From Eledone cirrhosa (lineage: Eukaryota): a DNA stretch of 64,000 bases. Location: assembly GCA_964016885.1 (NCBI GenBank), contig OZ024742.1, positions 45,260,001 through 45,324,000 of the forward strand, given 5' to 3'. This document shows positions 8,033 to 59,300 of this stretch, one piece after another. A program made the translations under genes and the position numbers. How positions within the stretch are numbered: the stretch's first letter is position 1; every line of letters starts with the position of its first letter. The notes beneath the pieces were generated by a model. The model worked only from the letters and a program-made list of their open reading frames with translations. It did not search any database and was not told where the DNA came from.

Positions 8033-8099
<67 letters not shown>

Positions 8100-8102
<3 letters not shown>

Positions 8103-8562: not shown

Positions 8563-8604
<42 letters not shown>

Positions 8605-8606
<2 letters not shown>

Positions 8607-8666
8607 GGATTAACAAATAATAGTTAAATGCAGTCCAACTTAGGTGGATGTAAACCTTCTTTCCTG

Positions 8667-8671
<5 letters not shown>
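8605..8671. mobile_element. 67-bp mini-insertion of the PLE family at 34802-37532
   Basis: Left part matches 34802-34842 and right part matches 37509-37532. (TA)n on both sides. Confidence 0.75.
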
Positions 8672-8710
<39 letters not shown>

Positions 8711-16390: not shown

Positions 16391-16407
16391 GTATATCTGT
16401 ATGTATG

Positions 16408-18460
16408 TGTAGCAGGAGTGGCCTCCCTTGTTGTGACACTCACATCCCCAATAGATTAACGCTCTCTAGACAGGAAGTAGAACCCTTTCTGTAACTTCCG
16501 GTCAGAACCCTATAAAACTAACAACTTTAAGTTCTCTCTCTCTCATTTGCCTTTTCGGCTCCTGGCCTTTGCCAGGCGTCTTCGCCCAGGCGCGTCTTTT
16601 GCCAGGCGCGTTCGCCTGGCAACCAAAACGGTAACTAATAACTTTGCTTCATTCTTTCATCTATTCATTGACATGTCAACCTTACTGTTCTATATATCCA
16701 CAAATTGTTAATTAAATATTATACACACAAATCACGTCTCATGTTATATTCATACACACCAGTATTTTGTTATAAGTGGTGACCCCGAAAAAAGAAAAAA
16801 ATAGCAGAATCTGGTGTGTGTGAGTAACATTACGAATACGCAGCAAAATTTTATTGACAAACTATGAAAATACGCAGTCAAAGACACGAACACACGTACA
16901 TGTGAAATTCTCATTCAGACAGACTCTTTTTCCTCACGCATCCACTAACTGTCGCAGTTCACTGTATATATATATATGTTTCTCATTTCTTACAACGAAC
17001 ACTTTAAAAACAAACAAAAAAAAATAGAAATTTGATTTTTTTTTTTTTTAAACATTTCAACAGGAACATTTATTTTCGATGAATCTCAACCATTACCTTT
17101 TTTTTCATCGTTTTCTTCATCGTTCAAGTTTTTTTCAAAGTTCACACCAAAAAAAAAAATTGAACTCGCCATATTTGTTATACTAAGTGAAGCCTTTCTT
17201 TCTTTTTCATCATTGTCACTTTCACACACACATTTTTTCAAAATGGCTGCCAACGACCTGTTGCACTATCATTTTCTCGCTCAATAGAAATATTTTTTTC
17301 TTTCAACTTAACCTTGTATTGGCACGTGTAGGCTGCACAATTCTCGATTCACTGAGATAGCCGGACGCCATGAGATAACGTTTCTCGCCAAGGATTCTCC
17401 AGCCTTAAGCTATATTCTCCTATTTGCCGGTTTAAAAATTTACCACGTAAATTTGCCGTTGAAAACTGCGCATTTATTCAGAATGCTTATTTCTTTGGTC
17501 GCTGGCCTCTTGACCCTTCCAGGTCAGCGCATTCTCAACATCGACCATCAACTTCGGCTGTTATTTCTAGCACTTTGCGCAACTCATTTTTTCTGAAAAA
17601 ATTATTTTACTGTGAATTTAAACATCGAGTACGCTCACTCCGCGAGACAACAACATCAACAGCAACACAGATTCATCAACAACCAAAACCAGCAGAACAA
17701 GCCAGAGAATTTATTTTTGCAGCACTCTTCCTGTGATAAAATCCATTCGGAGGTTGGAAATTTCACGTTACACCACCTGCATTCATTCTATGGAACACAC
17801 TTTCTTTCCTGCTGTCGTGTGATTGCACACCTGTGAACAATATTTTGAACATTTGAACTTTGAGCTCTTCTTTTACTTTATTACATTGTATCTTTTAGTG
17901 ATGGATAGATAGATGTCCAGTCGTTCTCTGGCCAAGAGCGGTTGACTACCTTGATATCTATCATTGATTTTTGCAAACATTATTATTTTTTTTTTTTTTT
18001 CGTAATTTTCATGCCTGTTACAACATTCTCGCCAACTTACTACATACATATTTCATTCGATTTTATATTTTAAAAATCTGGCGCGGGATAATGTAGCAGG
18101 AGTGGCCTCCCTTGTTGTGACACTCACATCCCCAATAGATTAACGCTCTCTAGACAGGAAGTAGAACCCTTTCTGTAACTTCCGGTCAGAACCCTATAAA
18201 ACTAACAACTTTAAGTTCTCTCTCTCTCATTTGCCTTTTCGGCTCCTGGCCTTTGCCAGGCGTCTTCGCCCAGGCGCGTCTTTTGCCAGGCGCGTTCGCC
18301 TGGCAACCAAAACGGTAACTAATAACTTTGCTTCATTCTTTCATCTATTCATTGACATGTCAACCTTACTGTTCTATATATCCACAAATTGTTAATTAAA
18401 TATTATACACACAAATCACGTCTCATGTTATATTCATACACATCAGTATTTTGTGAAATA
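16408..18460 (+). mobile_element. Non-autonomous LTR retrotransposon, copy 1 (tRNA-Trp PBS)
   Basis: Near-identical direct repeats 16408-16774 and 18092-~18458. PBS TGGTGACCCCGA at 16777-16788, purine tract before 18092, non-coding interior of about 1.3 kb. Confidence 0.9.
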
Positions 18461-19004: not shown

Positions 19005-21998
19005 TGTTTTTCTGGTTTTATAATTTCACAAATTTTTACCAATAGAGAGTCGGTTTCTAACATAGACACAAGACTCTCATTGGAATTTACACAACATCAA
19101 CTAGGTAGATATGTATGTATGCATGCATGTGTAGATATGGATGTTATTGTATGTGTGGATGTGTATGTTTTGAGTTGTATGTGTGCATGTGTATATGCTT
19201 TGTATCTGTACATGTGTATATGCAGTTATTAAAATTTTTGAATGTTTTACATATTTTTACTGTTCCATTAATGGATTGTACTTGTAATTTCCTAACTAGT
19301 TGTGTTCTTTCTGTTCCTGTGAAGCCTAGCTTCTCAAGATTTGTATTGAGGCAGTTACTAACATACCCCAGTGCCCCAATAATCACAGGCATAAATCTGA
19401 AGGTGTAATCAGGGTGGAGTATCTGCAGATTTCTCATCAGTTCTGCATAAATATTCTCCTTTTCTCTAATCTTTGATATTATATTGGCATCTGCTGGGCA
19501 GCTAATTTCCACTACTGTGCATGCTTTCTTCTACCTGTCCCATATCATAATATCTGGTCTGTTATGCCTGCATTTTATTGGGGTTTTTACTGGAACATTC
19601 CACCAGTACTCTTTCATATTAAGTACATGGATGTCTTCCACATTGCTGTAGCTTTTAATGTGTTTATTATCGGGGTTATCTTTTTTACGAACTGCATTGT
19701 ACAGTGTTTTGGCCACTACATCATGCCTCATAGGTAGATAGTACCTCGATGACATCTTTGGAAAGCTGCTGATGACATGGGTGATATCCTCGATGTTAGT
19801 TCTGCAGAGTCTGCACTTGTTATCACATCTAGGTGTTTTGCCTGCATCCCTATCTCTTTTGTGAATCAGGTATTTCGTGTTAATCTCCTGTTCTTGGGTT
19901 GCAAAAGTGTATCCTTCAAAGTGGGAGCCAATATAGCGGTTGTTAGTCCAAGATAGAATACTTTCCTTATCTATATTACTCTCACTCTGGAGCTTCCTGG
20001 CAACATATCCATGCATGATATTTTGCTGATAGGCATGCAGTTTTTCATCCATGGATTCACTGCGATACTGGTGAGCGACTTCCCTGGGTGTGAGTTTTTG
20101 ATTATCATACAGGGAATATCTCTCGAGGAGTTCCTTCCCAACTCTCATGATCTTATCTGTTTCATGCAGATAGACTTGCTCGAGAAGCGGGCTCCTACAC
20201 TTCGAGGTTCGTAGATGTTGTCGGAGAGATATGATGCGACATTCAAATGTTGTCTGGACTGATGTTTGGCCTCTGCCTCCCTGCTTACGTTTCAAGTAAA
20301 GGCGATCTATGTCACTGTTGATGTGGAAGTTTCCGGTGTTGTTCAGTATTTTACGAGTTCCAACATCAACTGCTCGGATTTCGTCTATCGTCCAATTGAG
20401 TATTCCAAACGTTGGTGTTAGGACAGGCACAGCAAACACATTGTGAGCCACTGTTTTGTTTTGCGCAGAGAATTCCGATGACCAGATCTTTCTTAATCGG
20501 GTGTAGTATTCCCTGGTTACGCGTTCTTTATTACAGATACCATTATAGTATATGTTCTCATCTATCCCCAGGTATCTGTAGCAGTCCTCATCAGATATCG
20601 GTGAACAGTTAGGCCATTGATGACAATGTTGCTAGATTGGGTTGTTGTTTTTCCCCGCTTTACAGTCATGTATGAGCATTTATCTTGGCCCAGCTCCATT
20701 CCTATATCCTCTGAGAACGTTGTAACCAAGTCAAGATTTTTCTTCATCCCATCCATGTTCTTGGCATAGAGTTTCAGAATGTCCACAAAGAAATTATGGG
20801 TTAGGTTCGTATTTCTGTCCTCCTGTGAGCCAATGATGTATCCCTCACATTTCTTTAGCAGAAAGAACAATGGTTTAATGACAAGATGAATAATATCACA
20901 GAGAGACTGTTCCCTCTGAAATATATCCCTGCAATATTTTATTTTATCAGTGAAAATAGAGTCCTCCCTCTCTGTCTTTAACCTGAGGATAGTAGCCCAA
21001 GAAGATGACAGCCTCTCTGTGGCTCTGACAATAATGTCTGGGACTTTAGCAAGTTGGAGGGCCTCTATCATCCAAGAGTGGGGAACAGAATCGAAAGCTT
21101 TCCTGTAGTCCAGCCAGACTATAGCCATATTCCTCCTAAGTTGTCGCACCTCCGACATCGCAGTTTTTTTTTATTAGGAGTTGTTCAGCACGTCCCCAAA
21201 CCCCTTTCTTTCCAGCTGCTTGTTCATCTGTGATGATGTTATTATTTTCCCAGTGATCTTGGAGGAATAGGTTCAGGCAGGCTGTATACATCTTATACAT
21301 CAGGTTCTGACATGCAATGGGTCGGTAGTTTTTTGCCAAGTGGGTGTCTTTGTTCTTGGGGACCAGTAATGTTTGTGCTAATGTCAACCATTCTGGTATA
21401 AGTGTATCTCCCTTAAGAACTTGTTGGTAGAGGTCAGTAAGACACCTCCGATAGAATATCAGTTTTTTGTACCAGTAGCCGACAATTATGTCTCTTCCTG
21501 GTGTTTTCTTATCTTGGAGTTTTCCTATCACAGTCTCAAGGGTACCCTCACTTATTTCGTATGTTTTTGTTGTAGTGTAGGAGCAATAGTTCTGTTGGAT
21601 TTCTTTTACCCACACTGCATCTTGGTTGAAATTCTTCTTTTCACCCCATATTTTGCTCCAAAAGGAATCTATGTCCTTCTGGGATGGGGCCTCAGTGACA
21701 CTTATTATTTTGTTCTTCATATCTCTATAGACTGATGTTTGATTTCGTCTGAATCTTTTATTAAGCACTTTTCTCTCATCTACCTTCTTCAGGTATCGGC
21801 GTTTTTCGCTAACAGCTCTCAATTCTTGTTTGAGGGTGATCAGATTATATTGAAGAGTTCTGGTTCTACTGTTACCAAACATCGTCTCTATTTTATTTTT
21901 CACTTTGTTGGTGAGGAGTGACGTTTTTTTGTGTTTGTTTGTATGTAAGGAGCATTGTCACATATCCTATGGTTTTTCGTAGGTCAGCAATCTGTTTT
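19005..21998 (-). mobile_element. R4/Dong-clade non-LTR retrotransposon (RT + CCHC + restriction-like endonuclease), frameshifted
   Basis: NYRPIAC, WLDYRKAFDSVPH, HNFFVD(I), CRLC...H...RHD, NRPDIMIWD..VEISCP...KENIY and PVIIGALG across four ORFs. Flanked by (TATG)n on both sides. Confidence 0.85.
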
Positions 21999-26906: not shown

Positions 26907-27395
26907 TTAGGGTATAATGTGGGGCTGTAATACAGGAAAGTTTTGTGCAATTTGTTTACAAGCCGAAATTGCCTCAGATTTTTTGTTTAAGATGTGGTCT
27001 GTGGCGTAGAGTATTTCCAGGGCCTCAGCGGCGCAGAGGTCACATGGTCTTTTATTTCCGTTATATAATCTAGCCCTAGCTAGGATCTCCCAGTGTAACT
27101 TATATTGGGTGTGGTTGTCTTTTAGACTCCAGATATAAGCTGAAAGTGACGTCATATTCCTTCTTAGAGGGTAACGAAAAGAATGGGTATGCAGGTAAAG
27201 ACGCTGCTTGAATCTATTGGCGGTTAACCCTATGTAGGCCCTACGGGACGTGGGTGTTTCAACCTTACATTTGTAGACAATGTTACTAGAGAGGCATTTC
27301 CCGGATAGGGGGCAATCAACCCTATTCCTACAATTACAGTTAGTACTAACTACAGGGTTGCACGCTCTATATATACACTCTGCAAACTACAGCCG
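26907..27395 (-). mobile_element. Neptune-type PLE GIY-YIG endonuclease fragment
   Basis: CNCRNRVDCPLSGKCLSSNIVYKCKV...AYIGLTANRFKQR...H.HSFR...TSLSAYIWSLKD...CDLCAAE...LNKKSEAISACK. Confidence 0.9.
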
Positions 27396-28185: not shown

Positions 28186-30022
28186 CTAATGTATTGGTAC
28201 GCGATGGGGCCCACCAACAGCCCCGGCGGACAGAATGGAGAAGGCGTTTCCCCGGAGGACGGCAAGGTAGACGCGCTGGAAAAGCCACTCCAACTCGTGG
28301 GGTTCACACCTGAGGCTGACCAGCTCAGCGCCTATAGTGGTGAGTAAAGAGGTAGCCCTGGGGCCGAGGACACCAGAAGTCTCCACTGCCAGGGGAACGA
28401 CCGCAATTTAAGGAGTTTGGCCCCCTCAGCCTTACGTGCAGCAGAACCTGGGTCAGTCGCAGACTGCACCAGGTTGCGGCTGCAGAAAGTGTCGGTGCAA
28501 GTGACATCCCAGACGAGGGCTTTGCCACCGCGGAACGGGAAGATGTTCATGCCATCTGGCCTTTTGCCGCCCCCTCGATCCAGCCCCACCGGCTCGAGCT
28601 GGGAAGGGAAGCCTGCAGCGTCCAAGCCATGCTTAATGACCTCGTTGAGGGCAGCATGGCGTGGAATGCGGCCTGCACTGTGGCGACAGGAAAGTGGGTG
28701 GAGGCCGAAAGCGTCCACGGTGGAACCGCAGCGACATTGGTGTGGCTGGCAGATCCGGAGGCCGAGCCTCAGGGAAACGCCGATTCGCAGGCTATGGTTG
28801 TCTAGCTGCGTGCCAGTGGGTAAGGAGGGCAGGGCATGGAGCCAGGTACCACTGTGGGGTTTGGAGACCGCACGAAAACAAGCAAGGCGGTGCTGGTCGA
28901 GCTAGCGCGTGAGCCTGTCTGAGGCCAGGCTGCACTGGATGGCATCCCAAGTGCGTTGGGGGGACTTGACGTCAACAAGGGGAGAAGGAGGAGGGACGTC
29001 TACTGGGCTAAGTCCCAGCCGGTCCCACGTCTCACAGGCGGCCTCGCGTTCTCTGAACACAGAGGGTTCTGTTGTGTTTTGAAGAACCCTGCTGACGAGG
29101 ACGTGGCATGATATTACCGACGAAAGATACGCCGGCAAAGCTAGTGAGATCGGGGACCGGAGGCCAAGGCCGACATACCTGACCGGTAAAGTGGCCTGTT
29201 GCCACCCTATGTCGTCAAACTTGACGTTGCATATCCCCTCGGCTGCTGCTCGGATACAAGTATCGAGGTCAGCGAGGAGAGATATCTGGCTGTAGCATGG
29301 AGCGCTGTGGAGTGTATAGAGGAGCTTTGGCATGGCGAAGCAGTTCCTCAGCAGAAAGAGAGCAGGGTGGCCGTCAATCAAGCCCAGTCGGCTCGTGAGA
29401 GTCTGGAGCTGTTGAAGCCTGGACCTGATGGTGGAGCGGATAGCCGGCGGGTGGATCGGTGACCCGATGATGAGGACATCCTCTTTGGGGGTCACCTGAA
29501 CCTGGCGGAGAATGGACTGCACGTCCAAGACGGAGGCTGCAAAGCTCGCAGCATCGAGGCTGACGTTCACCACCTCCGACTTGGCCGAGTTGACCTGGAG
29601 GCCGATTGCCGCCAGGGCAGGAATCACCGATTGAATGTCTTGGCAGACCGTCCGTACGGGCCCGCCCAACGTAGCATCATCCAGATACCAAACGTTGAGA
29701 GGGGCCGTGATACTCCGGGCGATGTGGTCAATACCAAGGGCGAACAGGAGAGGTCCCAACGGGTCGCCCTGTTGGACCCCAGTAGCCGAGGGTATGACCG
29801 TATCAGCAGCTAGGAGCATGCTCGGGGCTCCATATGACAGGTAGGCCAGCGGGTAGGCAGAGGGGGTTCGGCTGAGGCAGGCCTCGAGCAGATCATCCCC
29901 GGCATAAAGAGTTAAAGGCATTCCTCATGTCAAGCTTGACAATGAAGTGCCTGGAGTCTCTGGATGCCGGTACCAATGGGCAGCTGCTGAAGAACTGCCT
30001 GATTGCATGAGCGGCTCCTTCA
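28186..30022 (-). mobile_element. CRE-clade non-LTR retrotransposon (RT + CCHC + restriction-like endonuclease), 5' truncated
   Basis: KLDMRNAFN, GVQQGDPLGPLLF, WYLDD, GLGL, CRCG...H.LSC...RH, KRPDG...WDVTC and QR...RGNA. GC-rich, with frameshifts and stops. Confidence 0.85.
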
Positions 30023-34759: not shown

Positions 34760-34803
<44 letters not shown>

Positions 34804-35032
34804 GGATTAACAAATAATAGTTAAATGCAGTCCACTTAGGTGAAGTCCAGTTATGGTATTCCAGGTAGTGGATGATATTAACGCTTGGCTTGGTTTGACT
34901 CAACAAGGCGTTTTCATAGTGATGCTGCGGGTATGCTGTAATTCCTATGTTGTAAACACTTGGAGTAATATTAAATCAGGAAAGAAGGTTTACATGGTTT
35001 GCTATACAAAAAAGTTTTTAATCACATAGCTT

Positions 35033-36614
35033 CTAATCTTACCCATGATGAAATTGAAATAATAATAGCGGCTAGAAGGACTATCGTAAAATTTGAAAAT
35101 AACTACTGGGTAAGAAAGGATAGAATAAATAGCTTCGATATTACAATGGGATCAAATGATTCTGCGCAAATTACAGATATCGTGGGGCTATTCATAGCAC
35201 ACAACCTACATAAGGAATTCAGTAACCTCCAAGGAGGAATTTATAGGGACGACACGTTACTTATAGCTAGGAACCTAAACAACCAGAGCATGGAAAGACT
35301 AAGGAAAAATATTAGAATATTCTTCAAAAAACTAGGCCTAAGTATTACCTACGAACTAAACCATAAGAAGGTAAATTTCCTAGATGTAACTCTAAATCTA
35401 AATACTGGATTAATAGAACCTTTCCACAAAAATAATGAAAATCTTGCCTACATTAGTTACAACTCAAATCACCCCAAATCCATAATTAAATCCATAGCAC
35501 GTAGTATATCCCTCCGAATATCCCGCCTATCCTCAAACCTAGAAATCTTTAACGAGCATGCTGACTATTATAATGCAGCATTAAGTAGGGCCGGTCATAA
35601 AGATAAACTACAGTATATAGTGAATAAGGACAACATAAACAATCCTAGTAATTTCTACTCCAACCGCTCACATAATAATAGGAATAGCTTGACTAGACAT
35701 AGGGTTAGACATGTAACACCTAGAGTAAACGGCCAAAACACTAATAACGTAAACCCTAGAAACAATAGAAGAAACAGACAAAGAAAATACCTATGGTTCA
35801 ACCCAATATTCAACTCCTCTATAAAAACTAGACTGCCCTCTACATTCTTTAAACTAATAGATAAACACTTCCCTATCTCGCATAGATATCACAAAATACT
35901 CAATAGATCTACTATAAAACTCTCTTTCTCAACAGCAGCTAACATAGAATCACACATACGCAAGATCAACCACAGAAATATCTCAAGTAAATCAATTGCA
36001 CCTATACATAAGCACAAACTCATCACAACATCACAACCACAAGCGCATACAAACGCGCAGCAGCAAAACCCCATGGGGCATATATCACAACCCACTTATA
36101 ACAGGGTACTAAATAGGAATGTAAAAGCTGCACAAAATAGCGCCTCAAACTGCAACAGTCAGCTACCAGATAGGTGCCCATTGGCGAACAGATGTCTCGA
36201 TTCGAGCCTGGTGTACATGTGCACTGTCATCACGGGTAAACATAGGATTTATCGTGGGGCTATTCATAGCACACAACCTACATAAGGAATTCCATAGGAT
36301 CCACCGCGGGTTCTTTTAAGAAAAGATGGTATGTGCACAGGCACTCAATGAAAAATCGAGCACTTATGGGTTCCACCACCCTCGCCAGAAAAATATGGGA
36401 ATTGAAGGACAGCAACGCTAGCTACACTATCAACTGGTCGAAGTTGTCGGCTGCTAAAACCTATAGTACAGGGATGTCCTATTGCGGGCTGTGTGACCTT
36501 GAGCTATTGTATATCCTTAGAAATGTTAAAAGGCTACTTAATAATAAGTTAGAAAGATCTATCTTCTGCAGACATAGAATAGCCACTAAATTCATAAGAT
36601 TCAAACCTCCGTGA
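35033..36614 (+). pseudogene. PLE reverse transcriptase / GIY-YIG endonuclease (disrupted)
   Basis: ORFs 34999-36285 and 36333-36614. The first 11 codons of the called ORF come from the inverted pLTR, and an insertion breaks the YIG motif. Confidence 0.85.
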
Positions 36615-36942
36615 ATCGAACCAACATAACATAGCTTTAAATTAGGATACCTACTACCCACAGAAATATATTCATTAAGTATACTATTTCCTTCACAAGT
36701 CTATACCACACAATTGTCTGTAAATACCTCATCTACCAACAATCTTACTCCTTCTCAGCTGCTGCAATCATTTGATCCTAGATCCTAGTTTTTCTCATTT
36801 CACTACTACAATGTTACTTTACCTTCTTTTTGCCATAACTACAATTAGCACGCTTTTCTCTTTGCATGTATGTATATTTTTGTACGAGTGTATATTGATG
36901 TGTATGTATGTGTCTATGTACACATATATGTGTATATATATT

Positions 36943-37003
<61 letters not shown>

Positions 37004-37366
37004 AGATATATGCGTATATTAATTCGTTAACCTCTGTATTAACTCTACAACTATTGAGCTTTGACAGTGGTCCCACTCATGTATACTGTTGAAGATGAAG
37101 AGAAGGACTGTAAAAACTAGCTTATCTTTATAATTTAAAATTGATACACACTACGATACTTTTTGCCTTATGACAGCTGATTTTCACGCCGTAACATTAG
37201 ATACATTATATACCCCCCCCCCCCCACCTAAGTAATGTCAGGGTCTCCTTAAATAGTTTATTGATAGCATTGTTGTAATAATTGTTGTTGTTATTGTTCT
37301 AATTGAATGCCATAACTACTCCATATTTTCTTTTCTTTTCTTGCCTGTGTATTTTCTTCATTCTCG

Positions 37367-37479
37367 CATGCTCCGAAGATCTGACTGGTTATAATTCTGT
37401 ATTGGCGATCGAGTGACGCAAAATTAGGCGGATAGCGATCTCTAGACAGACCAGTTCAGTGAAACAAATGTAAGCTATG
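37367..37479 (+). ncRNA. pLTR hammerhead ribozyme (U4C core variant, long stem II)
   Basis: catgct-CCGAAGA-t-ctgactggt...accagttcag-t-GAAAC-aaat-GTA-agctatg, at the expected pLTR position. Confidence 0.7.
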
Positions 37480-37527
37480 TGATTAAAAACTTTTTTGTAT
37501 AGCAAACCATGTAAACCTTCTTTCCTG

Positions 37528-37601
<74 letters not shown>

Positions 37602-40011: not shown

Positions 40012-42023
40012 TATAGCGAAGATACTGGGTTGTATGAATGTAACAAGGAGACATGGTTTGTGTGTATAATATTTAATCAACAATTCAACAGTATAGTTGA
40101 CATGTCAAAGAAATAGATGAAAGAATGAAGCAAAGTTAGTAGTTACTGTTTTGATTGCCAGGCAAACGCGGCTGGCAGAAATCGCCTGGCGAAGGCCAGG
40201 CGCCGGTAGGGCTAATGAGAGGGTGAGAACTTAAAGTTATTAGTTTTATAGGGTTCTGACCGGAAGTTACAGAAAGGGTTCTACTTCCCGTCTAGATGTT
40301 GTTAATCTATTGGGGTTGTGAGTCACAACAAGGGGGGCTACTGCTACATAACCTCCCGCCAGAATTTTAGAATATAAAAATCGAATGAAATATGTAGCAA
40401 GTTGGCGAGAATGTTGTAACAGGCCTGAAAATTACGACAAAAGAATGTTTGCAAAAATCAATGATAGATATCAAGGTAGCCAACCGCTCTTGGCCAGAGA
40501 ACGACTGGACATCTATCTATCCATCACCCAAAGATACAATGTAATAAGGTAAGAGAAGAGCTCAAAGTTCAAATGTACAAAATATAGTTCACAGGTGTGC
40601 AATCACATGACAGCAGGAAAGAAAGTGTGTTCCAGAGAATGAATGCAGGTGGTTTCTGTTCTGTGGTATATCGTGAAATTTCCAACCTCCGAATGGATTT
40701 TCTCACAGGAAGAGAGCTGCAAAAATAAATTCTCTGGCTTGTTCTGCTGGTTTTGGTTGTTGATGAAGCTGTGTTGCTGTTGCTGTTGTTGTTGTCTCGC
40801 TGAGTGAGCGTATTCGGTGTTTAAATTCACAGTAAAAAAAAAGATTTTTCGGAAAAAAATGAGTTGCGCAAAGTGCTAGAAATAACAGCCGAAGTTGATG
40901 GTCGATGTTGAGAATGCGTTGACCTGGAAGGGTCAAGAGGCCAGCGACCAAAGAAATAAGCATTCTGAATAAATGCGCAGTTTTCAACGGCAAATTTACG
41001 TGGTAAATTTTTAAACCGGCAAATAGGAGAATATAGCTTAAGGCTGAAGAATCCTTGGCGAGAAACGTTATCTCTGGCGTGCGGCTATCTCTGTGAGTCG
41101 AGATATCTCTGTGAGTCGAGAATTTGAGCTGCCTACACGTGCCAATACAAGGTTAAGTTAGGTTAAAAAAAAATATATTTCTAACGCGCGAGAAAATGAT
41201 AGTGCAAGTGTGAAAGTGACAATGATGAAAAAGAAAGGCTTCACTTAGCATAATTATTGGTGTGAACTTTTGGGGAAAAAAAAAAAATAACTTGAACGAT
41301 GAAGAAAACGATGAAAAAAAAATAAACAATGGTTCTTCGAAAATAAATGTTCTTGTTGAAATGTTTTTAAAAAAATATCAAATTTCTTTTTTTGTTGTTA
41401 TTTTGGAAGTGTTCGTTGTAAGAAACGAGAAACATATATATATATATATCGTGAAATGCGACAGTTAGTTGATGCGTGAGAGAAAAAGTCTGTCTGAACG
41501 CGAATTTCACATGTGCGTGGTGTGTTCGTTTCTTTGACTGAGTATTTTCATAGTTTGTCAATAAATTTGTTGTGTATTCATAATGTTACTCACACAACAC
41601 CAGATTCTGCTATTTTTTATTTTTTCGGGGTGACCACTTATAGCGATGAACGGCTGCGTGTTCGTATCACGTCAGGGTTACCAATATAGCGGAGTACTCG
41701 TGCAATGTATGAATGTAACAAGGAGACATGGTTTGTGTGTATAATATTTAATCAACAATTTAACAGTATAGTTGACATGTCAAAGAAATAGATGAAAGAA
41801 TGAAGCAAAGTTAGTAGTTACCGTTTTGATTGCCAGGCAAACGCGGCTGGCAGAAGACGCCTGGCGAAGGCCAGGCGCCGGTAGGGCTAATGAGGGGGTG
41901 AGAACTTAAAGTTATTAGTTTTATAGGGTTCTGACCGGAAGTTACAGAAAGGGTTCTACTTCCCGTCTAGATGTTGTTAATCTATTGGGGTTGTGAGTCA
42001 CAACAAGGGAGGCTACTGCTACA
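40012..42023 (-). mobile_element. Non-autonomous LTR retrotransposon, copy 2
   Basis: LTRs 40012-40348 and ~41685-42023, TSD ACAC (40008-40011 and 42024-42027), PPT ggcgggagg, PBS at 41625-41636. Interior homologous to copy 1. Confidence 0.9.
41652..41683 (+). other. Copy of tRNA-Trp 3' end including CCA (extended PBS)
   Basis: ggctgcgtgttcgtatcacgtcagggttacca versus recalled metazoan tRNA-Trp end GGCTGCGTGTTCGAATCACGTCGGGGTCACCA (3 differences). Confidence 0.8.
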
Positions 42024-42182
42024 ACACTATCTGCTGTATGTGTAGTCTTATACACCTACAGCAGATAGTCTTATATAGTCTTATATTCCCGTGTCACATA
42101 TCTTTATCACTGTCAGCTGTATGTGTAAAGCATTGCAGTCCCTGTTGTATATCTTATTCTACAGTCAAGCTTCAACAACAGG

Positions 42183-42873
42183 TTTCTTTATGGTGAAAAA
42201 GATATCAATTTCTCCCTCATGTGGTTCTGCCTTTCTTTATGGTGAAGAAGATATCACTTTCTCCCTCATGTGGTTCTGCCTTTCTTTATGGTGAAGAAGA
42301 TATCACTTTCTCCCTCATGTGGTTCTGCCTTTCTTTATGGTGAAGAAGATATCACTTTCTCACTCATGTGGTTCTGCCTTTCTTTATGGTGAAGAAGATA
42401 TCACTTTCTCCCACATGTGGTTCTGCCTTTCTTTATGGTGAAGAAGATATCACTTTCTCCCTCATGTGGTTCTGCCTTTCTTTATGGTGAAGAAGATATC
42501 ACTTTCTCCCTCATGTGGTTCTGCCTTTCTTTATGGTGAAGAAGATATCACTTTCTCACTCATGTGGTTCTGCCTTTCTTTATGGTGAAGAAGATATCAC
42601 TTTCTCCCTCATGTGGTTCTGCCTTTCTTTATGGTGAAGAAGATATCACTTTCTCCCTCATGTGGTTCTGCCTTTCTTTATGGTGAAGAAGATATCACTT
42701 TCTCCCACATGTGGTTCTGCCTTTCTTTATGGTGAAGAAGATATCACTTTCTCCCACATGTGGTTCTGCCTTTCTTTATGGTGAAGAAGATATCACTTTC
42801 TCACTCATGTGGTTCTGCCTTTCTTTATGGTGAAGAAGATATCACTTTCTCCCTCATGTGGTTCTGCCTTTCT
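42183..42873. repeat. 49-bp minisatellite
   Basis: Unit tttctttatggtgaagaagatatcactttctccctcatgtggttctgcc, about 14 copies. Confidence 0.97.
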
Positions 42874-42947
42874 TCCCACAGTTCAAATCTTCATATGTGT
42901 TACCTTATATCTGTTATAAGTATCACACCCCAGTTTCCTTTGTATTC

Positions 42948-45880
42948 CATGGTTATATCACACATCTCATGGTTCACTACACTGTCATCTCACACATCTC
43001 ATGGTTCACTCCACTGTCATCTCACACATCTCATGGTTCACTCCACTGTCATCTCACACATCCCATGGTTCACTACACTCTCATCTCACACATCTCATGG
43101 TTCACTACACTGTCATCTCACACATCTCATGGTTCACTCCACTGTCATCTCACACATCTCATGGTTCACTCCACTGTCATATCACACATCTCATGGTTCA
43201 CTCCACTGTCATCTCACACATCTCATGGTTCACTCCACTGTCATCTCACACATCTCATGGTTCACTACACTGTCATCTCACACATCTCATGGTTCACTCC
43301 ACTGTCATCTCATACATCTCATGGTTCACTCCACTGTCATCTCACACATCCCATGGTTCACTACACTCTCATCTCACACATCTCATGGTTCACTCCACTG
43401 TCATCTCACACATCCCATGGTTCACTACACTGTCATCTCACACATCTCATGGTTCACTACACTGTCATCTCACACATCTCATGGTTCACTACACTCTCAT
43501 CTCACACATCCCATGGTTCACTACACTATCATCTCACACATCTCATGGTTCACTACACTGTCATCTCACACATCTCATGGTTCACTACACTATCATCTCA
43601 CACATCTCATGGTTCACTACACTGTCATCTCACACATCTCATGGTTCACTCCACTGTCATCTCACACATCCCATGGTTCACTACACTCTCATCTCACACA
43701 TCTCATGGTTCACTACACTCTCATCTCACACATCTCATGGTTCACTACACTCTCATCTCACACATCTCATGGTTCACTCCACTGTCATCTCACACATCCC
43801 ATGGTTCACTACACTGTCATCTCACACATCTCATGGTTCACTACACTGTCATCTCACACATCTCATGGTTCACTACACTGTCATCTCACACATCTCATGG
43901 TTCACTAGACTGTCATTTCACACATCCCATGGTTCACTACACTGTCATCTCACACATCTCATGGTTCACTAGACTGTCATCTCACACATCTCATGGTTCA
44001 CTACACTGTCATCTCGCACATCTCATGGTTCACTCCACTGTCATCTCACACATCTCATGGTTCACTCCACTGTCATCTCACACATCCCATGGTTCACTCC
44101 ACTGTCATCTCACACATCCCATGGTTCACTCCACTGTCATCTCACACATCCCATGGTTCACTACACTGTCATCTCACACATCTCATGGTTCACTACACTG
44201 TCATCTCACACATCTCATGGTTCACTACACTGTCATCTCACACATCTCATGGTTCACTACACTGTCATCTCACACATCTCATGGTTCACTAGACTGTCAT
44301 TTCACACATCCCATGGTTCACTCCACTGTCATCTCACACATCTCATGGTTCACTCCACTGTAATCTCACACATATCATGGTTCACTCCACTGTCATCTCA
44401 CACATCCCATGGTTCACTCCACTGTCATCTCACACATCTCATGGTTCACTACACTGTCATCTCACACATCTCATGGTTCACTACACTGTCATCTCACACA
44501 TCTCATGGTTCACTACACTGTCATCTCACACATCCCATGGTTCACTACACTGTCATCTCACACATCCCATGGTTCACTACACTGTCATTTCACACATCCC
44601 ATGGTTCACTACTCTGTCATCTCACACATCTCATGGTTCACTACACTGTCATCTCACACATCCCATGGTTCACTACACTGTCATCTCACACATCTCATGG
44701 TTCACTACACTGTCATCTCACACATCTCATGGTTCACTACACTGTCATTTCACACATCCCATGGTTCACTACACTGTCATCTCACACATCTCATGGTTCA
44801 CTACACTGTCATCTCACACATCTCATGGTTCACTACACTGTCATCTCGCACATCTCATGGTTCACTCCACTGTCATCTCACACATCTCATGGTTCACTAC
44901 ACTGTCATCTCACACATCTCATGGTTCACTACACTGTCATCTCACACATCCCATGGTTCACTACACTGTCATCTCACACATCTCATGGTTCACTCCACTG
45001 TCATCTCACACATCTCATGGTTCACTCCACTGTCATCTCACACATCTCATGGTTCACTACACTGTCATCTCACACATCCCATGGTTCACTACACTGTCAT
45101 CTCACACATCTCATGGTTCACTCCACTGTCATCTCACACATCTCATGGTTCACTCCACTGTCATCTCACACATCTCATGGTTCACTACACTGTCATCTCA
45201 CACATCCCATGGTTCACTACACTGTCATCTCGCACATCTCATGGTTCACTACACTGTCATCTCACACATTTCATGGTTCACTCCACTGTCATTTCACACA
45301 TCTCATGGTTCACTACACTGTCATCTCACACATCTCATGGTTCACTCCACTGTCATCTCGCACATCTCATGGTTCACTACACTGTCATCTCGCACATCTC
45401 ATGGTTCACTCCACTGTCATCTCACACATCTCATGGTTCACTACACTGTCATCTCACACATCCCATGGTTCACTCCACTGTCATCTCACACATCTCATGG
45501 TTCACTACACTCTCATCTCACACATCTCATGGTTCACTCCACTGTCATCTCACACATCTCATGGTTCACTACACTGTCATCTCACACATCTCATGGTTCA
45601 CTACACTCTCATCTCACACATCTCATGGTTCACTACACTGTCATCTCACACATCTCATGGTTCACTCCACTGTCATCTCACACATCCCATGGTTCACTCC
45701 ACTGTCATCTCACACATCCCATGGTTCACTCCACTGTCATCTCACACATCCCATGGTTCACTACACTGTCATCTCACACATCCCATGGTTCACTCCACTG
45801 TCATCTCACACATCTCATGGTTCACTCCACTGTCATCTCACACATCTCATGGTTCACTACACTGTTATTTCATGGTTAAC
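42948..45880. repeat. 32-bp minisatellite
   Basis: Unit catggttcact(a/c)cactgtcatctcacacatc(t/c), about 90 copies. Confidence 0.98.
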
Positions 45881-46229
45881 TACACAAATGTTCAGACAAC
45901 ATATTTGAATAGGTTCACAGTAAAGAAACCTCTCTGTGGTTACTTGACCTGCTAGAAATAGCAGCTAAATTTTCTGTTAGTGTACTACAGATAGTACACC
46001 ACCTTTACTGTATCACAGATAGTAAACCAACTTTAATGTGTTTATGTATGTATTAACTAGAAATACTTCACCTCATTGAGCAGCCTGTGAGAAAATTGTA
46101 AGAAAGAAGAAATGACATAATAGATTCAAATGAAATTGGGTTTGCAGAGACTGTTGTGAAATATACAAGATTTGGCAGTATTTTACTTAACATAACCCCT
46201 AAAAATATTAATTCATCAATTGTTATTAC

Positions 46230-49358: not shown

Positions 49359-50394
49359 ATACTGAAATATGCCAACATTACTATAAATTTAGAGGCCCAC
49401 TGATGAGTTTGGATAGGGCCCACATGTAAGTAAATCCCACCCTGCCAGTAAAAAACTTTAATTCTCTTTCTCCCGTCCACTGAGCTGGAAAAAATGAGTT
49501 GTTTCTGTAATTCAAAAGACCAGCCTGTTACATACTATGTCATGCTGAATCTCCCTGACAATTATGTTAAATGTATACATGTCTGTGGAGTACTTAGTCA
49601 CTTATGTGCTAATTTCACAAACAAATAAAACTCATCATCACTAACAAAAATCCAGCACACACCATATAAATTGACATTGTGCCAACCACTTTTATGTATT
49701 GTTTTTCATTTTCCTGGCTGTATATAGTCTAAATATATTCTGTTTGCAATCTTTAAATGAATGCAAGTGGCTTGAGTAAAGTCGTTGTAGTCCAATCCAC
49801 AGTTATATAAGCTGACTGCAAAGGACGTTGTACATTAATATCAGCTTTGTTCCATGTCCAATTAATACTGTTTATTTAAGAATTAAATAATAAAAAAGAA
49901 ACAATTTAGAGAATAAGCAGTTTAACTAATTAAGTGCAATCATATAATACGAAAACAATTGCAGACGTTATACACTAGGTAATAAAGTATAAATTCTATT
50001 GAAAAGGGAAAGAACTCATGATTACAGTTTGTCTTACTATGATAGAAAATGAATTGGGGTTTTTTTTTTTTTTTTTTTTTTTTTTCTGTATCAAATCATT
50101 GTATTTTCAAACTGAAAAAGTCTTCCTTGCAGAATTTTCCCTATGTAGATATATATTATCCTTGGCTATTTCAGTTAAGTAAATTTAAATTTTGTTTAAG
50201 TGAAATGTACTCATTTTGAAATTTCTATTCTCACTTAGAATTACAAATTTCTTTTACCTTCATGTTTCAAACTTAGAACAGAATTAATAAGTATTATTCT
50301 TTTTCCTGCTATGTCAGTGTTAGTCTTCTAAATCATTCTATTACCATCTTGCCTGAGACTGCATATATTGAAGGTCCTTATCATCATCATCGTT

Positions 50395-53300
50395 TTTGTC
50401 TGTTGATTCTGTGAGTACACCACCATCGCCAGACAAGTCTTGTCTGGTGATTCTGTGAGTACACCACCATCACCAGACAATTCTTGTCTGGTGATTCTGT
50501 GAGTACACCACAATCACCAGGCAAGTCTTGTCTGGTGATTCTGTGAGTACACCACCATCACAAGACAAGTCTTGTCTGGTGATTCTGTGAGTACACCACC
50601 ATCACCAGACAAGTCTTGTCTGGTGATTCTGTGAGTACACCACCATCACCAGACAAGTCTTGTCTGGTGATTCTGTGAGTACACCACAATCGCCAGACAA
50701 GTCTTGTCTGGTGATTCTGTGAGTACACCACAATCACCAGACAAGTCTTGTCTGGTGATTCTGTGAGTACACCACAATCGCCAGACAAGTCTTGTCTGGT
50801 GATTCTGTGAGTACACCACCATCACCAGACAAGTCTTGTCTGGTGATTCTGTGAGTACACCACAATCGCCAGACAAGTCTTGTCTGGTGATTCTGTGAGT
50901 ACACCACCATCACCAGACAAGTCTTGTCTATTGATTCTGTGAGTACACCACAATCACCAGACAAGTCTTGTCTGTTGATTCTGTGAGTACACCACCATCA
51001 CCAGACAAGTCTTGTCTGGTGATTCTGTGAGTACACCACAATCGCCAGACAAGTCTTGTCTGGTGATTCTGTGAGTACACCACCATCACCAGACAAGTCT
51101 TGTCTGGTGATTCTGTGAGTACACCACAATCACCAGACAAGTCTTGTCTGGTGATTCTGTGAGTACACCACAATCGCCAGACAAGTCTTGTCTGTTGATT
51201 CTGTGAGTACACCACAATCGCCAGACAAGTCTTGTCTATTGATTCTGTGAGTACACCACAATCGCCAGACAAGTCTTGTCTGTTGATTCTGTAAGTACAC
51301 CACAATCGCCAGACAAGTCTTGTCTGTTGATTCTGTGAGTACACCACAATCGCCAGACAAGTCTTGTCTATTGATTCTGTGAGTACACCACAATCGCCAG
51401 ACAAGTCTTGTCTGTTGATTCTGTGAGTACACCACAATCGCCAGACAAGTCTTGTCTATTGATTCTGTGAGTACACCACAATCGCCAGACAAGTCTTGTC
51501 TGTTGATTCTGTAAGTACACCACAATCACCAGACAAGTCTTGTCTATTGATTCTGTGAGTACACCACAATCGCCAGACAAGTCTTGTCTGTTGATTCTGT
51601 GAGTACACCACAATCGCCAGACAAGTCTTGTCTGTTGATTCTGTGAGTACACCACAATCACCAGACAAGTCTTGTCTGTTGATTCTGTGAGTACACCACA
51701 ATCGCCAGACAAGTCTTGTCTGTTGATTCTGTGAGTACACCACAATCACCAGACAAGTCTTGTCTGTTGATTCTGTGAGTACACCACAATCACCAGACAA
51801 GTCTTGTCTGGTGATTCTGTGAGTACCCATAATCACCAGGCAAGACTTGTCTGGTGATTCTGTGAGTACACCACAATCGCCAGACAAGTCTTGTCTGTTG
51901 ATTCTGTGAGTACACCACAATCGCCAGACAAGTCTTGTCTGTTGATTCTGTAAGTACACCACAATCGCCAGACAAGTCTTGTCTGTTGATTCTGTGAGTA
52001 CACCACAATCGCCAGACAAGTCTTGTCTATTGATTCTGTGAGTACACCGCAATCGCCAGACAAGTCTTGTCTGTTGATTTTGTAAGTACACCCCAATCAC
52101 CAGACAAGTCTTGTCTATTGATTCTGTGAGTACACCACAATCGCCAGACAAGTCTTGTCTATTGATTCTGTGAGTACACCACAATCGCCAGACAAGTCTT
52201 GTCTGTTGATTCTGTGAGTACACCACAATCGCCAGACAAGTCTTGTCTATTGATTCTGTAAGTACACCACAATCGCCAGACAAGTCTTGTCTGTTGATTC
52301 TGTGAGTACACCACAATCGCCAGACAAGTCTTGTCTGTTGATTCTGTGAGTACACCACAATCACCAGACAAGTCTTGTCTGTTGATTCTGTGAGTACACC
52401 ACCATCACCAGACAAGTCTTGTCTGGTGATTCTGTGAGTACACCACAATCGCCAGACAAGTCTTGTCTGGTGATTCTGTGAGTACACCACCATCACCAGA
52501 CAAGTCTTGTCTGGTGATTCTGTGAGTACACCACAATCACCAGACAAGTCTTGTCTGGTGATTCTGTGAGTACACCACAATCGCCAGACAAGTCTTGTCT
52601 GTTGATTCTGTGAGTACACCACAATCGCCAGACAAGTCTTGTCTATTGATTCTGTGAGTACACCACAATCGCCAGACAAGTCTTGTCTGTTGATTCTGTA
52701 AGTACACCACAATCGCCAGACAAGTCTTGTCTGTTGATTCTGTGAGTACACCACAATCGCCAGACAAGTCTTGTCTATTGATTCTGTGAGTACACCACAA
52801 TCGCCAGACAAGTCTTGTCTGTTGATTCTGTGAGTACACCACAATCGCCAGACAAGTCTTGTCTATTGATTCTGTGAGTACACCACAATCGCCAGACAAG
52901 TCTTGTCTGTTGATTCTGTAAGTACACCACAATCACCAGACAAGTCTTGTCTATTGATTCTGTGAGTACACCACAATCGCCAGACAAGTCTTGTCTGTTG
53001 ATTCTGTGAGTACACCACAATCGCCAGACAAGTCTTGTCTGTTGATTCTGTGAGTACACCACAATCACCAGACAAGTCTTGTCTGTTGATTCTGTGAGTA
53101 CACCACAATCGCCAGACAAGTCTTGTCTGTTGATTCTGTGAGTACACCACAATCACCAGACAAGTCTTGTCTGTTGATTCTGTGAGTACACCACAATCAC
53201 CAGACAAGTCTTGTCTGGTGATTCTGTGAGTACCCATAATCACCAGGCAAGACTTGTCTGGTGATTCTGTGAGTACAGCACAATCGCCAGACAAGTCTTG

Positions 53301-56300
53301 TCTGTTGATTCTGTGAGTACACCACAATCGCCAGACAAGTCTTGTCTGTTGATTCTGTAAGTACACCACAATCGCCAGACAAGTCTTGTCTGTTGATTCT
53401 GTGAGTACACCACAATCGCCAGACAAGTCTTGTCTATTGATTCTGTGAGTACACCGCAATCGCCAGACAAGTCTTGTCTGTTGATTCTGTAAGTACACCC
53501 CAATCACCAGACAAGTCTTGTCTATTGATTCTGTGAGTACACCACAATCGCCAGACAAGTCTTGTCTATTGATTCTGTGAGTACACCACAATCGCCAGAC
53601 AAGTCTTGTCTGTTGATTCTGTGAGTACACCACAATCATCAGACAAGTCTTGTCTGTTGATTCTGTGAGTACACCACAATCATCAGACAAGTCTTGTCTG
53701 GTGATTCTGTGAGTACACCACAATCGCCAGACAAGTCTTGTCTGGTGATTCTGTGAGTACACCACAATCACCAGACAAGTCTTGTCTGGTGATTCTGTGA
53801 GTACACCACAATCGCCAGACAAGTCTTGTCTGGTGATTCTGTGAGTACACCACCATCACCAGACAAGTCTTGTCTGGTGATTCTGTGAGTACACCACAAT
53901 CGCCAGACAAGTCTTGTCTGGTGATTCTGTGAGTACACCACCATCACCAGACAAGTCTTGTCTATTGATTCTGTGAGTACACCACAATCACCAGACAAGT
54001 CTTGTCTGTTGATTCTGTGAGTACACCACCATCACCAGACAAGTCTTGTCTGGTGATTCTGTGAGTACACCACAATCGCCAGACAAGTCTTGTCTGGTGA
54101 TTCTGTGAGTACACCACCATCACCAGACAAGTCTTGTCTGGTGATTCTGTGAGTACACCACAATCACCAGACAAGTCTTGTCTGGTGATTCTGTGAGTAC
54201 ACCACAATCGCCAGACAAGTCTTGTCTGTTGATTCTGTGAGTACACCACAATCGCCAGACAAGTCTTGTCTATTGATTCTGTGAGTACACCACAATCGCC
54301 AGACAAGTCTTGTCTGTTGATTCTGTAAGTACACCACAATCGCCAGACAAGTCTTGTCTGTTGATTCTGTGAGTACACCACAATCGCCAGACAAGTCTTG
54401 TCTATTGATTCTGTGAGTACACCACAATCGCCAGACAAGTCTTGTCTGTTGATTCTGTGAGTACACCACAATCGCCAGACAAGTCTTGTCTATTGATTCT
54501 GTGAGTACACCACAATCGCCAGACAAGTCTTGTCTGTTGATTCTGTAAGTACACCACAATCACCAGACAAGTCTTGTCTATTGATTCTGTGAGTACACCA
54601 CAATCGCCAGACAAGTCTTGTCTGTTGATTCTGTGAGTACACCACAATCGCCAGACAAGTCTTGTCTGTTGATTCTGTGAGTACACCACAATCACCAGAC
54701 AAGTCTTGTCTGTTGATTCTGTGAGTACACCACAATCGCCAGACAAGTCTTGTCTGTTGATTCTGTGAGTACACCACAATCACCAGACAAGTCTTGTCTG
54801 TTGATTCTGTGAGTACACCACAATCACCAGACAAGTCTTGTCTGGTGATTCTGTGAGTACCCATAATCACCAGGCAAGACTTGTCTGGTGATTCTGTGAG
54901 TACACCACAATCGCCAGACAAGTCTTGTCTGTTGATTCTGTGAGTACACCACAATCGCCAGACAAGTCTTGTCTGTTGATTCTGTAAGTACACCACAATC
55001 GCCAGACAAGTCTTGTCTGTTGATTCTGTGAGTACACCACAATCGCCAGACAAGTCTTGTCTATTGATTCTGTGAGTACACCGCAATCGCCAGACAAGTC
55101 TTGTCTGTTGATTCTGTAAGTACACCCCAATCACCAGACAAGTCTTGTCTATTGATTCTGTGAGTACACCACAATCGCCAGACAAGTCTTGTCTATTGAT
55201 TCTGTGAGTACACCACAATCGCCAGACAAGTCTTGTCTGTTGATTCTGTGAGTACACCACAATCGCCAGACAAGTCTTGTCTATTGATTCTGTAAGTACA
55301 CCACAATCGCCAGACAAGTCTTGTCTGTTGATTCTGTGAGTACACCACAATCGCCAGACAAGTCTTGTCTGTTGATTCTGTGAGTACACCACAATCACCA
55401 GACAAGTCTTGTCTGTTGATTCTGTGAGTACACCACCATCACCAGACAAGTCTTGTCTGGTGATTCTGTGAGTACACCACAATCGCCAGACAAGTCTTGT
55501 CTGGTGATTCTGTGAGTACACCACCATCACCAGACAAGTCTTGTCTGGTGATTCTGTGAGTACACCACAATCACCAGACAAGTCTTGTCTGGTGATTCTG
55601 TGAGTACACCACAATCGCCAGACAAGTCTTGTCTGTTGATTCTGTGAGTACACCACAATCGCCAGACAAGTCTTGTCTATTGATTCTGTGAGTACACCAC
55701 AATCGCCAGACAAGTCTTGTCTGTTGATTCTGTAAGTACACCACAATCGCCAGACAAGTCTTGTCTGTTGATTCTGTGAGTACACCACAATCGCCAGACA
55801 AGTCTTGTCTATTGATTCTGTGAGTACACCACAATCGCCAGACAAGTCTTGTCTGTTGATTCTGTGAGTACACCACAATCGCCAGACAAGTCTTGTCTAT
55901 TGATTCTGTGAGTACACCACAATCGCCAGACAAGTCTTGTCTGTTGATTCTGTAAGTACACCACAATCACCAGACAAGTCTTGTCTATTGATTCTGTGAG
56001 TACACCACAATCGCCAGACAAGTCTTGTCTGTTGATTCTGTGAGTACACCACAATCGCCAGACAAGTCTTGTCTGTTGATTCTGTGAGTACACCACAATC
56101 GCCAGACAAGTCTTGTCTGTTGATTCTGTGAGTACACCACAATCGCCAGACAAGTCTTGTCTGTTGATTCTGTGAGTACACCACAATCGCCAGACAAGTC
56201 TTGTCTCTTGATTCTGTGAGTACACCACAATCGCCAGACAAGTCTTGTCTGTTGATTCTGTAAGTACACCACAATCGCCAGACAAGTCTTGTCTGTTGAT

Positions 56301-59300
56301 TCTGTGAGTACACCACAATCGCCAGACAAGTCTTGTCTATTGATTCTGTGAGTACACCACAATCGCCAGACAAGTCTTGTCTGTTGATTCTGTGAGTACA
56401 CCACAATCGCCAGACAAGTCTTGTCTATTGATTCTGTGAGTACACCACAATCGCCAGACAAGTCTTGTCTGTTGATTCTGTAAGTACACCACAATCACCA
56501 GACAAGTCTTGTCTATTGATTCTGTGAGTACACCACAATCGCCAGACAAGTCTTGTCTGTTGATTCTGTGAGTACACCACAATCGCCAGACAAGTCTTGT
56601 CTGTTGATTCTGTAAGTACACCACAATCACCAGACAAGTCTTGTCTGTTGATTCTGTGAGTACACCACAATCGCCAGACAAGTCTTGTCTGTTGATTCTG
56701 TGAGTACACCACAATCACCAGACAAGTCTTGTCTGTTGATTCTGTGAGTACACCACAATCACCAGACAAGTCTTGTCTGGTGATTCTGTGAGTACCCATA
56801 ATCACCAGGCAAGACTTGTCTGGTGATTCTGTGAGTACACCACAATCGCCAGACAAGTCTTGTCTGTTGATTCTGTGAGTACACCACAATCGCCAGACAA
56901 GTCTTGTCTGTTGATTCTGTAAGTACACCACAATCGCCAGACAAGTCTTGTCTGTTGATTCTGTGAGTACACCACAATCGCCAGACAAGTCTTGTCTATT
57001 GATTCTGTGAGTACACCGCAATCGCCAGACAAGTCTTGTCTGTTGATTCTGTAAGTACACCCCAATCACCAGACAAGTCTTGTCTATTGATTCTGTGAGT
57101 ACACCACAATCGCCAGACAAGTCTTGTCTATTGATTCTGTGAGTACACCACAATCGCCAGACAAGTCTTGTCTGTTGATTCTGTGAGTACACCACAATCG
57201 CCAGACAAGTCTTGTCTATTGATTCTGTAAGTACACCACAATCGCCAGACAAGTCTTGTCTGTTGATTCTGTGAGTACACCACAATCGCCAGACAAGTCT
57301 TGTCTGTTGATTCTGTGAGTACACCACAATCACCAGACAAGTCTTGTCTGTTGATTCTGTGAGTACACCACCATCACCAGACAAGTCTTGTCTGGTGATT
57401 CTGTGAGTACACCACAATCGCCAGACAAGTCTTGTCTGGTGATTCTGTGAGTACACCACCATCACCAGACAAGTCTTGTCTGGTGATTCTGTGAGTACAC
57501 CACAATCACCAGACAAGTCTTGTCTGGTGATTCTGTGAGTACACCACAATCGCCAGACAAGTCTTGTCTGTTGATTCTGTGAGTACACCACAATCGCCAG
57601 ACAAGTCTTGTCTATTGATTCTGTGAGTACACCACAATCGCCAGACAAGTCTTGTCTGTTGATTCTGTAAGTACACCACAATCGCCAGACAAGTCTTGTC
57701 TGTTGATTCTGTGAGTACACCACAATCGCCAGACAAGTCTTGTCTATTGATTCTGTGAGTACACCACAATCGCCAGACAAGTCTTGTCTGTTGATTCTGT
57801 GAGTACACCACAATCGCCAGACAAGTCTTGTCTATTGATTCTGTGAGTACACCACAATCGCCAGACAAGTCTTGTCTGTTGATTCTGTAAGTACACCACA
57901 ATCACCAGACAAGTCTTGTCTATTGATTCTGTGAGTACACCACAATCGCCAGACAAGTCTTGTCTGTTGATTCTGTGAGTACACCACAATCGCCAGACAA
58001 GTCTTGTCTGTTGATTCTGTGAGTACACCACAATCACCAGACAAGTCTTGTCTGTTGATTCTGTGAGTACACCACAATCGCCAGACAAGTCTTGTCTGTT
58101 GATTCTGTGAGTACACCACAATCACCAGACAAGTCTTGTCTGTTGATTCTGTGAGTACACCACAATCACCAGACAAGTCTTGTCTGGTGATTCTGTGAGT
58201 ACCCATAATCACCAGGCAAGACTTGTCTGGTGATTCTGTGAGTACACCACAATCGCCAGACAAGTCTTGTCTGTTGATTCTGTGAGTACACCACAATCGC
58301 CAGACAAGTCTTGTCTGTTGATTCTGTAAGTACACCACAATCGCCAGACAAGTCTTGTCTGTTGATTCTGTGAGTACACCACAATCGCCAGACAAGTCTT
58401 GTCTATTGATTCTGTGAGTACACCGCAATCGCCAGACAAGTCTTGTCTGTTGATTCTGTAAGTACACCCCAATCACCAGACAAGTCTTGTCTATTGATTC
58501 TGTGAGTACACCACAATCGCCAGACAAGTCTTGTCTATTGATTCTGTGAGTACACCACAATCGCCAGACAAGTCTTGTCTGTTGATTCTGTGAGTACACC
58601 ACAATCGCCAGACAAGTCTTGTCTATTGATTCTGTAAGTACACCACAATCGCCAGACAAGTCTTGTCTGTTGATTCTGTGAGTACACCACAATCGCCAGA
58701 CAAGTCTTGTCTGTTGATTCTGTGAGTACACCACAATCGCCAGACAAGTCTTGTCTGGTGTTTCTGTGAGTACACCACAATCGCCAGACAAGTCTTGTCT
58801 ATTGATTCTGTGAGTACACCACAATCGCCAGACAAGTCTTGTCTATTGATTCTGTGAGTACACCACAATCGCCAGACAAGTCTTGTCTGGTGATTCTGTG
58901 AGTACCCATAATCACCAGGCAAGACTTGTCTGGTGATTCTGTGAGTACCCATAATCACCAGGCAAGACTTGTCTGGTGATTCTGTGAGTACACCACAATC
59001 GCCAGACAAGTCTTGTCTGGTGATTCTGTGAGTACCCATAATCACCAGGCAAGACTTGTCTGGTGATTCTGTGAGTACACCACCATCACCAGACAAGTCT
59101 TGTCTATTGATTCTGTGAGTACACCACAATCACCAGACAAGTCTTGTCTGTTGATTCTGTGAGTACACCACAATCACCAGACAAGTCTTGTCTGGTGATT
59201 CTGTGAGTACACCACAATCATCAGACAAGTCTTGTCTGTTGATTCTGTGAGTACACCACAATCACCAGACAAGTCTTGTCTGTTGATTCTGTGAGTACAC

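Follow-up and report, generated by a model that had tools for sequence, protein, structure and literature searches.

In the accessible part of their description, Penelope-like elements of the Hydra clade are generally shorter than 3 kb and carry canonical hammerhead ribozymes and a tail of 30–40 bp (PMC8557442). For the Poseidon element PAc of Anolis, the available sections of the report describe two internal reverse transcription start sites that define the tail, cutting and extension of both target strands, and uncut RNA as the main substrate; the ORF begins inside the ribozyme, the activity of which depends on the element's protein, insertion is normal when the ribozyme is mutated, and none of the RNA-seq reads described there starts or ends at the cut (PMC11167929). 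Penelope of Drosophila virilis has an internal TATA-less promoter in its pLTR, composed of an initiator and a downstream element (PMC2377424, accessible text). In R2 elements with an HDV-like ribozyme, genomic 5′ junctions reflect the position of self-cleavage, which yields their standard 5′ end (PMC3774820, available portion). A search of titles and abstract openings, with most subscription journals outside its coverage, found no publication mapping Penelope breakpoints to a hammerhead cut or to a transcription start.

The element at the locus described here belongs to a known type; its ribozyme is a variant and its tail is unusually long. It departs from the Hydra-clade description, as far as the accessible text of PMC8557442 goes, in its 3.5 kb unit, its U4C ribozyme core and its 3′ ends, which lie ~170 nt apart. 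Unlike in Anolis PAc, the ribozyme is located just behind a predicted transcription start, and there is a small excess of genomic breakpoints at the predicted cut. Cleavage, which in the R2 system gives the standard 5′ end (PMC3774820, available portion), would here yield a minor class of truncated templates.

Structure of the window copy and its family

The window, i.e., the whole analysed stretch of 64,000 nt, corresponds to OZ024742.1:45260001-45324000 of the ~3-Gb genome of Eledone cirrhosa. It contains a Penelope-like element inserted in (TA)n and composed of two pieces joined head-to-head. Positions are numbered from the predicted ribozyme cut: +1 is 37473, the first base 3′ of it, and −1 is 37472, the A of the GUA triplet. 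The features of the insertion, and of a second one from the same family, are as follows.

34761–34801, no strand: (TA)n target, left flank
34802–35032, minus strand: inverted piece, spanning the pLTR between its long 3′ end (~+230) and the predicted cut (−1/+1)
35032–37533, plus strand: forward piece, comprising a 5′-truncated ORF, the 3′ UTR and a pLTR that stops at the short 3′ end (~+60)
36240–36278, plus strand: 38-nt insertion in the endonuclease region, overlapping a repeat of 35178–35220 and disrupting the reading frame of the window copy
37533–37600, no strand: (TA)n target, right flank
8603–8676 (approximate), no strand: second, tiny insertion of the same family, with an inverted long end to +190 and a forward short end from +37 to +60

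The segment 37472–37532 is the exact reverse complement of 34972–35032 (61 nt), confirming the match with a 1-nt overlap at the A of GTA that an earlier note on this DNA had described. The other 170 nt of the inverted piece have no counterpart in the window's own 3′ pLTR, but the piece agrees with the natural full-length copy L031 at 230 of 231 bases. In L031 numbering, the forward piece begins 2418 nt before the cut; it has 47 mismatches in 2456 aligned bases. Base 35032, a T, is compatible both with the inverted piece (as −1) and with the ORF piece of intact copies, so the break lies at −1 or exactly at +1. Apart from this copy, the window yielded one more family member, the 8603–8676 insertion, with breaks at +190 and +37, in keeping with the note's remark that the other fold-backs break elsewhere.

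The rest of the window contains several unrelated or more distant repeats. A fold-back at 7968–8603, its arms of 191 nt separated by 5 nt, has no relation to the pLTR, and an unrelated 2-kb repeat forms an inverted pair, 81% identical, at 16407–18452 and 40019–42027. The minus strand carries at 26907–27386 another GIY-YIG endonuclease fragment with a CxCx5C-like linker, probably from a second Hydra-type family. Judging from translations only, 19144–21957 (minus), 28332–29924 (minus) and 62515–63917 (plus) look like remnants of other non-LTR retrotransposons. There are also two tandem arrays, one of short units at 42800–45900, open in all three plus-strand frames, and a long one at 50288–62300 with ~260 copies of a 44-nt unit and larger higher-order duplications.

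Regarding the identity of the element, L031 and L033 each contain a single 808-codon frame with YRDD and YIG motifs, as expected of an EN+ Penelope-like element. The atlas neighbours of its protein score 0.96–0.98, some belonging to clusters with GIY-YIG (26–50% of members) or RVT_1, and sequence searches of Pfam and PDB with the 794-aa protein returned 0 matches. The translation contains RWK, DKT, a CxCx5C linker, CxxC and CxH; these motifs, the single ORF, the (TA)n target, the hammerhead in the pLTR and the tandem and inverted insertions are all found in the accessible description of the Hydra clade (PMC8557442). On these sequence features, the element is placed in the Hydra clade of C-terminal EN+ Penelope-like elements.

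The family also has the structural organization of Penelope elements, with pLTRs derived from partial tandems (L031-L033 and L038 are tandem copies), inverted 5′ pieces and a tail at one end. Its pieces stop at one of two fixed 3′ positions, ~+60 or ~+230, adjoining (TA)n, and many insertions consist of two head-to-head pieces with short microhomology at the junction. In many of them both pieces end within a few bases of each other (e.g., −114/−112, −53/−52, +12/+12), a pattern suggesting either that the two had a template end in common or that the centre of the palindrome was trimmed later.

The window copy was likely made by two target-primed cDNAs. By analogy with the Anolis system (PMC11167929, available sections), reverse transcription probably begins at two internal sites here as well, with both strands being extended and a tail of 170 nt. 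Each nicked (TA)n strand would act as primer at one or the other of these sites, and each cDNA would halt by drop-off or by run-off at the RNA 5′ end. That end would be the predicted start at −113 and, more rarely, +1 on a self-cleaved RNA. A few matching bases would then serve to join the ends of the two cDNAs. Snap-back of a single cDNA was discarded as a general mechanism, because in many insertions, among them the window copy, L002, L009 and L024, the piece with the short end extends further upstream than the one with the long end, which a single folded-back cDNA would not produce as a rule.

The predicted hammerhead and the fixed 5′ end at −113

The pLTR contains four features relevant to the breakpoints.

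37358–37363, plus strand: initiator-like TCATTC, the A at 37360 (−113) being the predicted transcription start, from the breakpoint edge and the motif
37364–37482, plus strand: predicted type I hammerhead, from motif and fold
37387–37392, plus strand: DPE-like GGTTAT at +28 to +33 from 37360, within hammerhead stem II
37473–37476, plus strand: AGCT palindrome, beginning directly 3′ of the predicted cut

The putative hammerhead is built of the core CCGAAGA (37373–37379, U4C), a long stem II, GAAA at 37461–37464, GUA at 37470–37472 and a bulged stem I, the GTA that ends at 37472 being preceded by GAAAC-AAAT. The free MFE fold contains stems I and II, and the 2-bp stem III, assigned by eye, is absent from it. 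Three stems, GAAA and an NUH triplet can thus be assigned as in a type I hammerhead, and the canonical CUGANGA box is replaced in subfamilies A and D by CCGAAGA, with CCGATGA common in B and CTGATGA in C. Rfam returned no hammerhead match at E ≤ 1, only miRNA matches driven by microsatellite sequence, so the call rests on motif and fold. In this predicted form, the U4C-variant ribozyme of the earlier note, with 37472 as the A of its cleavage triplet, is upheld.

The subfamilies form a graded ribozyme series, CUGAUGA, CCGAUGA and CCGAAGA (L089, L097, L223, L031), along which the triplet goes from GUC to GUA and the stem III loop from AAUU to AAAU; the degenerate form is found in the subfamily with nearly identical copies. 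According to the accessible text of PMC3088659, U4C reduces hammerhead activity in vitro, yet it supports viroid infectivity, and the Anolis ribozyme requires its protein (PMC11167929, available sections), so a weak motif does not have to mean an inactive ribozyme.

The strongest fixed 5′ end of the family is found 113 nt upstream of the cut, at window position 37360. In subfamilies A and D, 24 pieces end in −115..−112 vs 9 in −127..−116 (97 rows, by eye; p 1e-8), and in the sister subfamilies ~40 end in −117..−112 vs 3 in −127..−118 (among the matches listed, 100 of 150; by eye). TCATTC fits the initiator consensus and GGTTAT, at +28 to +33, fits that of the DPE in both sequence and spacing, the pair forming an initiator with a correctly placed downstream element. 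This spacing is retained in B and in one C lineage, and is off by one in another C lineage. The hexamer agrees with the general DPE consensus and not with the RGACGTGY of Drosophila LINEs in the accessible text of PMC2377424; the arrangement resembles that of the D. virilis Penelope promoter described there, with the difference that the start is here deduced from breakpoints and motifs alone.

Perfect fold-backs occur at three loci on GCATGC, a palindrome adjacent to the predicted start. In L161, L260 and one further row (by eye), −114 is preceded by an untemplated G; as a cap-derived base at the predicted start, it is only a hint. The predicted initiator and DPE (37358–37392) overlap the hammerhead, and the ribozyme would span the first 120 nt of the transcript.

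The assignment of the −113 edge to a predicted transcription start, from breakpoints and motifs, is a firmer result than the cleavage footprint discussed below. The edge shows that RNA 5′ ends are able to leave breakpoint footprints and, as the dominant fixed end is the predicted start at −113, the RNAs that began there carried an uncut ribozyme.

Breakpoints at the predicted cut site

Truncated pieces were collected across the genome with patterns consisting of an exact anchor and a block excluding the native upstream bases, so that only truncated pieces match, and the apparent breakpoint was taken as the 5′-most base that matches. Capture was incomplete and unequal between patterns, with at most 100 matches listed for each. 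The A/D event set (A and D being the subfamilies with the CCGAAGA/GUA ribozyme, to which the window copy belongs) pooled several pattern searches and a few rows read by eye, each palindrome being counted once. Three further sets were scripted: for A, a single search with 52 rows recovered of 58 listed, 10 of them set aside for indels or duplications; for B, 98 rows recovered among 100 listed of 134 (14 set aside); and for C, 96 of 99 rows (13 set aside). The sister subfamilies surfaced in a search with 745 matches (100 listed) that was dominated by their intact copies. A simulation indicated that base composition does not favour −1/+1 (share 0.077 vs 0.087).

In A/D, 11 of the 37 junction events in −11..+12 fall at −1/+1. 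The excess persists without the window copy (10/36, with 2.8–3.1 expected; p 3e-4 to 8e-4), decreases when the three AGCT fold-backs are also removed (7/33, p 0.01–0.02), and decreases again without the junction in stem I (6/32, p 0.03–0.05). The scripted A set has 7 of 26 pieces at −1/+1 within −19..+11, with 1.7 expected, and 5/24 (p 0.019) once the window copy and one palindrome arm are taken out. Subfamily A has no net excess downstream of the site (0.83 vs 0.92 per nt), the peak being offset by a dip at +2..+11.

The sisters B (CCGATGA common) and C (CTGATGA) share the pLTR, and both retain GUC and a self-complementary stem III, with a dimer energy of −6.4 vs −0.7 kcal/mol; C also retains CUGAUGA. 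No sharp peak at the cut site was found in either of them (B 6/72, C 5/69; jointly 11/141, with 9.4 expected), and subfamily A differs from B and C taken together at this position (p 0.01). Their joint density rises 1.8-fold across the site, from 3.6 to 6.4 per nt (64 in 18 nt vs 77 in 12 nt; p 3e-4). Further upstream it is flat, with 28, 23 and 28 breakpoints in three 15-nt bins (among the matches listed, 100 of 224; by eye), and downstream it has not decayed by +25 among the 100 matches listed of 236 in a search partly filled by subfamily D (by eye). This step could reflect templates that were cleaved and whose ends were then trimmed. As it persists to +25, it could also be due to a gradient in the direction of the priming site, or to an artefact of the anchor.

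Uncut and possibly cleaved templates

Across the family, the RNA was mostly copied uncut, and the chances appear about even that a minority of A/D templates had their 5′ end at the hammerhead cut. Cutting by the ribozyme likely accounts for no more than a minority of the copies, since most of them read through the site and many stop at −113. Of the 40 best matches scored among 2024 candidates for the inverted piece, in a search that could return only pieces reaching the cut, 39 read upstream through it. For the window copy itself, run-off from a cleaved RNA is a tentative reading, somewhat below even; the caution of the earlier note that a single case could be chance was well placed, one copy not being assignable to cleavage. 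Its central claim, that the inverted piece is a footprint of cleavage, is partly supported by the A/D excess at −1/+1 (10/36 without the window copy), and is weakened by the absence of a sister peak, by microhomology at the same bases and by a main end located at −113. The peak that it had sought at the NUH site in a breakpoint histogram took the form of a modest A/D excess, with the strongest end at −113 and no sharp peak at the cut in B or C.

The strongest alternative, which we consider a real though lesser possibility, involves no cleavage: the window junction would be a random truncation, and the family excess would arise from microhomology at AGCT and in stem I plus chance. The breakpoint density in A/D is indeed roughly flat between −98 and +24 (~1.1 per nt, by eye), a rate at which some truncations in subfamily A must hit any site, and the sisters, many copies of which have AGCA instead of AGCT, lack the peak. 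The A/D ribozyme moreover looks degenerate, with U4C, GUA and an imperfect stem III palindrome, and U4C lowers activity in vitro (PMC3088659, accessible text); that the peak sits in the subfamily whose ribozyme looks weakest is awkward for cleavage. A perfect fold-back of one sister copy at −57, where no RNA end is predicted, also tells against cleavage. Against the alternative, perfect fold-backs, which occur on AGCT (+1) at three loci with unrelated flanks, were absent from five other palindromes visible to the patterns, three of them 6-mers (partly by eye; those at −96, −80 and −51 are invisible to the patterns and were left out of the counts). Seven non-palindromic −1/+1 events are left after removing the window copy, and the window junction itself involves neither AGCT nor stem I.

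It is improbable that the excess is real but reflects a pause of the reverse transcriptase at the folded or protein-bound ribozyme core of uncut RNA. The cut site does coincide with the 5′ end of the 3′ strand in stem I, and the short duplications or insertions found at three −1/+1 junctions of A/D (L114, L117 and L130) fit stalling and re-priming, but comparable duplications also occur at other junction positions, and a stop caused by structure would rather be expected where stem I (+8 to +10) or stem II (−14) has its 3′ edge, positions at which subfamily A has no clear excess. Finally, a uniform distribution of breakpoints, which the earlier note had named as fatal to its reading, is ruled out by the −113 edge and the −1/+1 excess.

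Returning to cleavage of a minority of templates, the breakpoints as a whole may constitute a fossil map of the 5′ ends of Penelope RNAs, a reading to which we give slightly less than even weight. The map would record a promoter embedded in the ribozyme and, in a minority of templates, in vivo cleavage by a U4C hammerhead that removes a capped leader of 113 nt, the shortened templates still being copied by the element.

On the present data, cutting is not the normal route of insertion in this family. The predicted promoter has its start 113 nt 5′ of the cut and its downstream element within the ribozyme sequence, and cutting would strip the capped leader from the transcript. In a young, large family such as this one, RNA 5′ ends can be read from DNA junctions, which makes a computational test possible in any genome. 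If true, the excess at the cut would be the first genomic evidence that the hammerhead of a metazoan Penelope element cuts in vivo.
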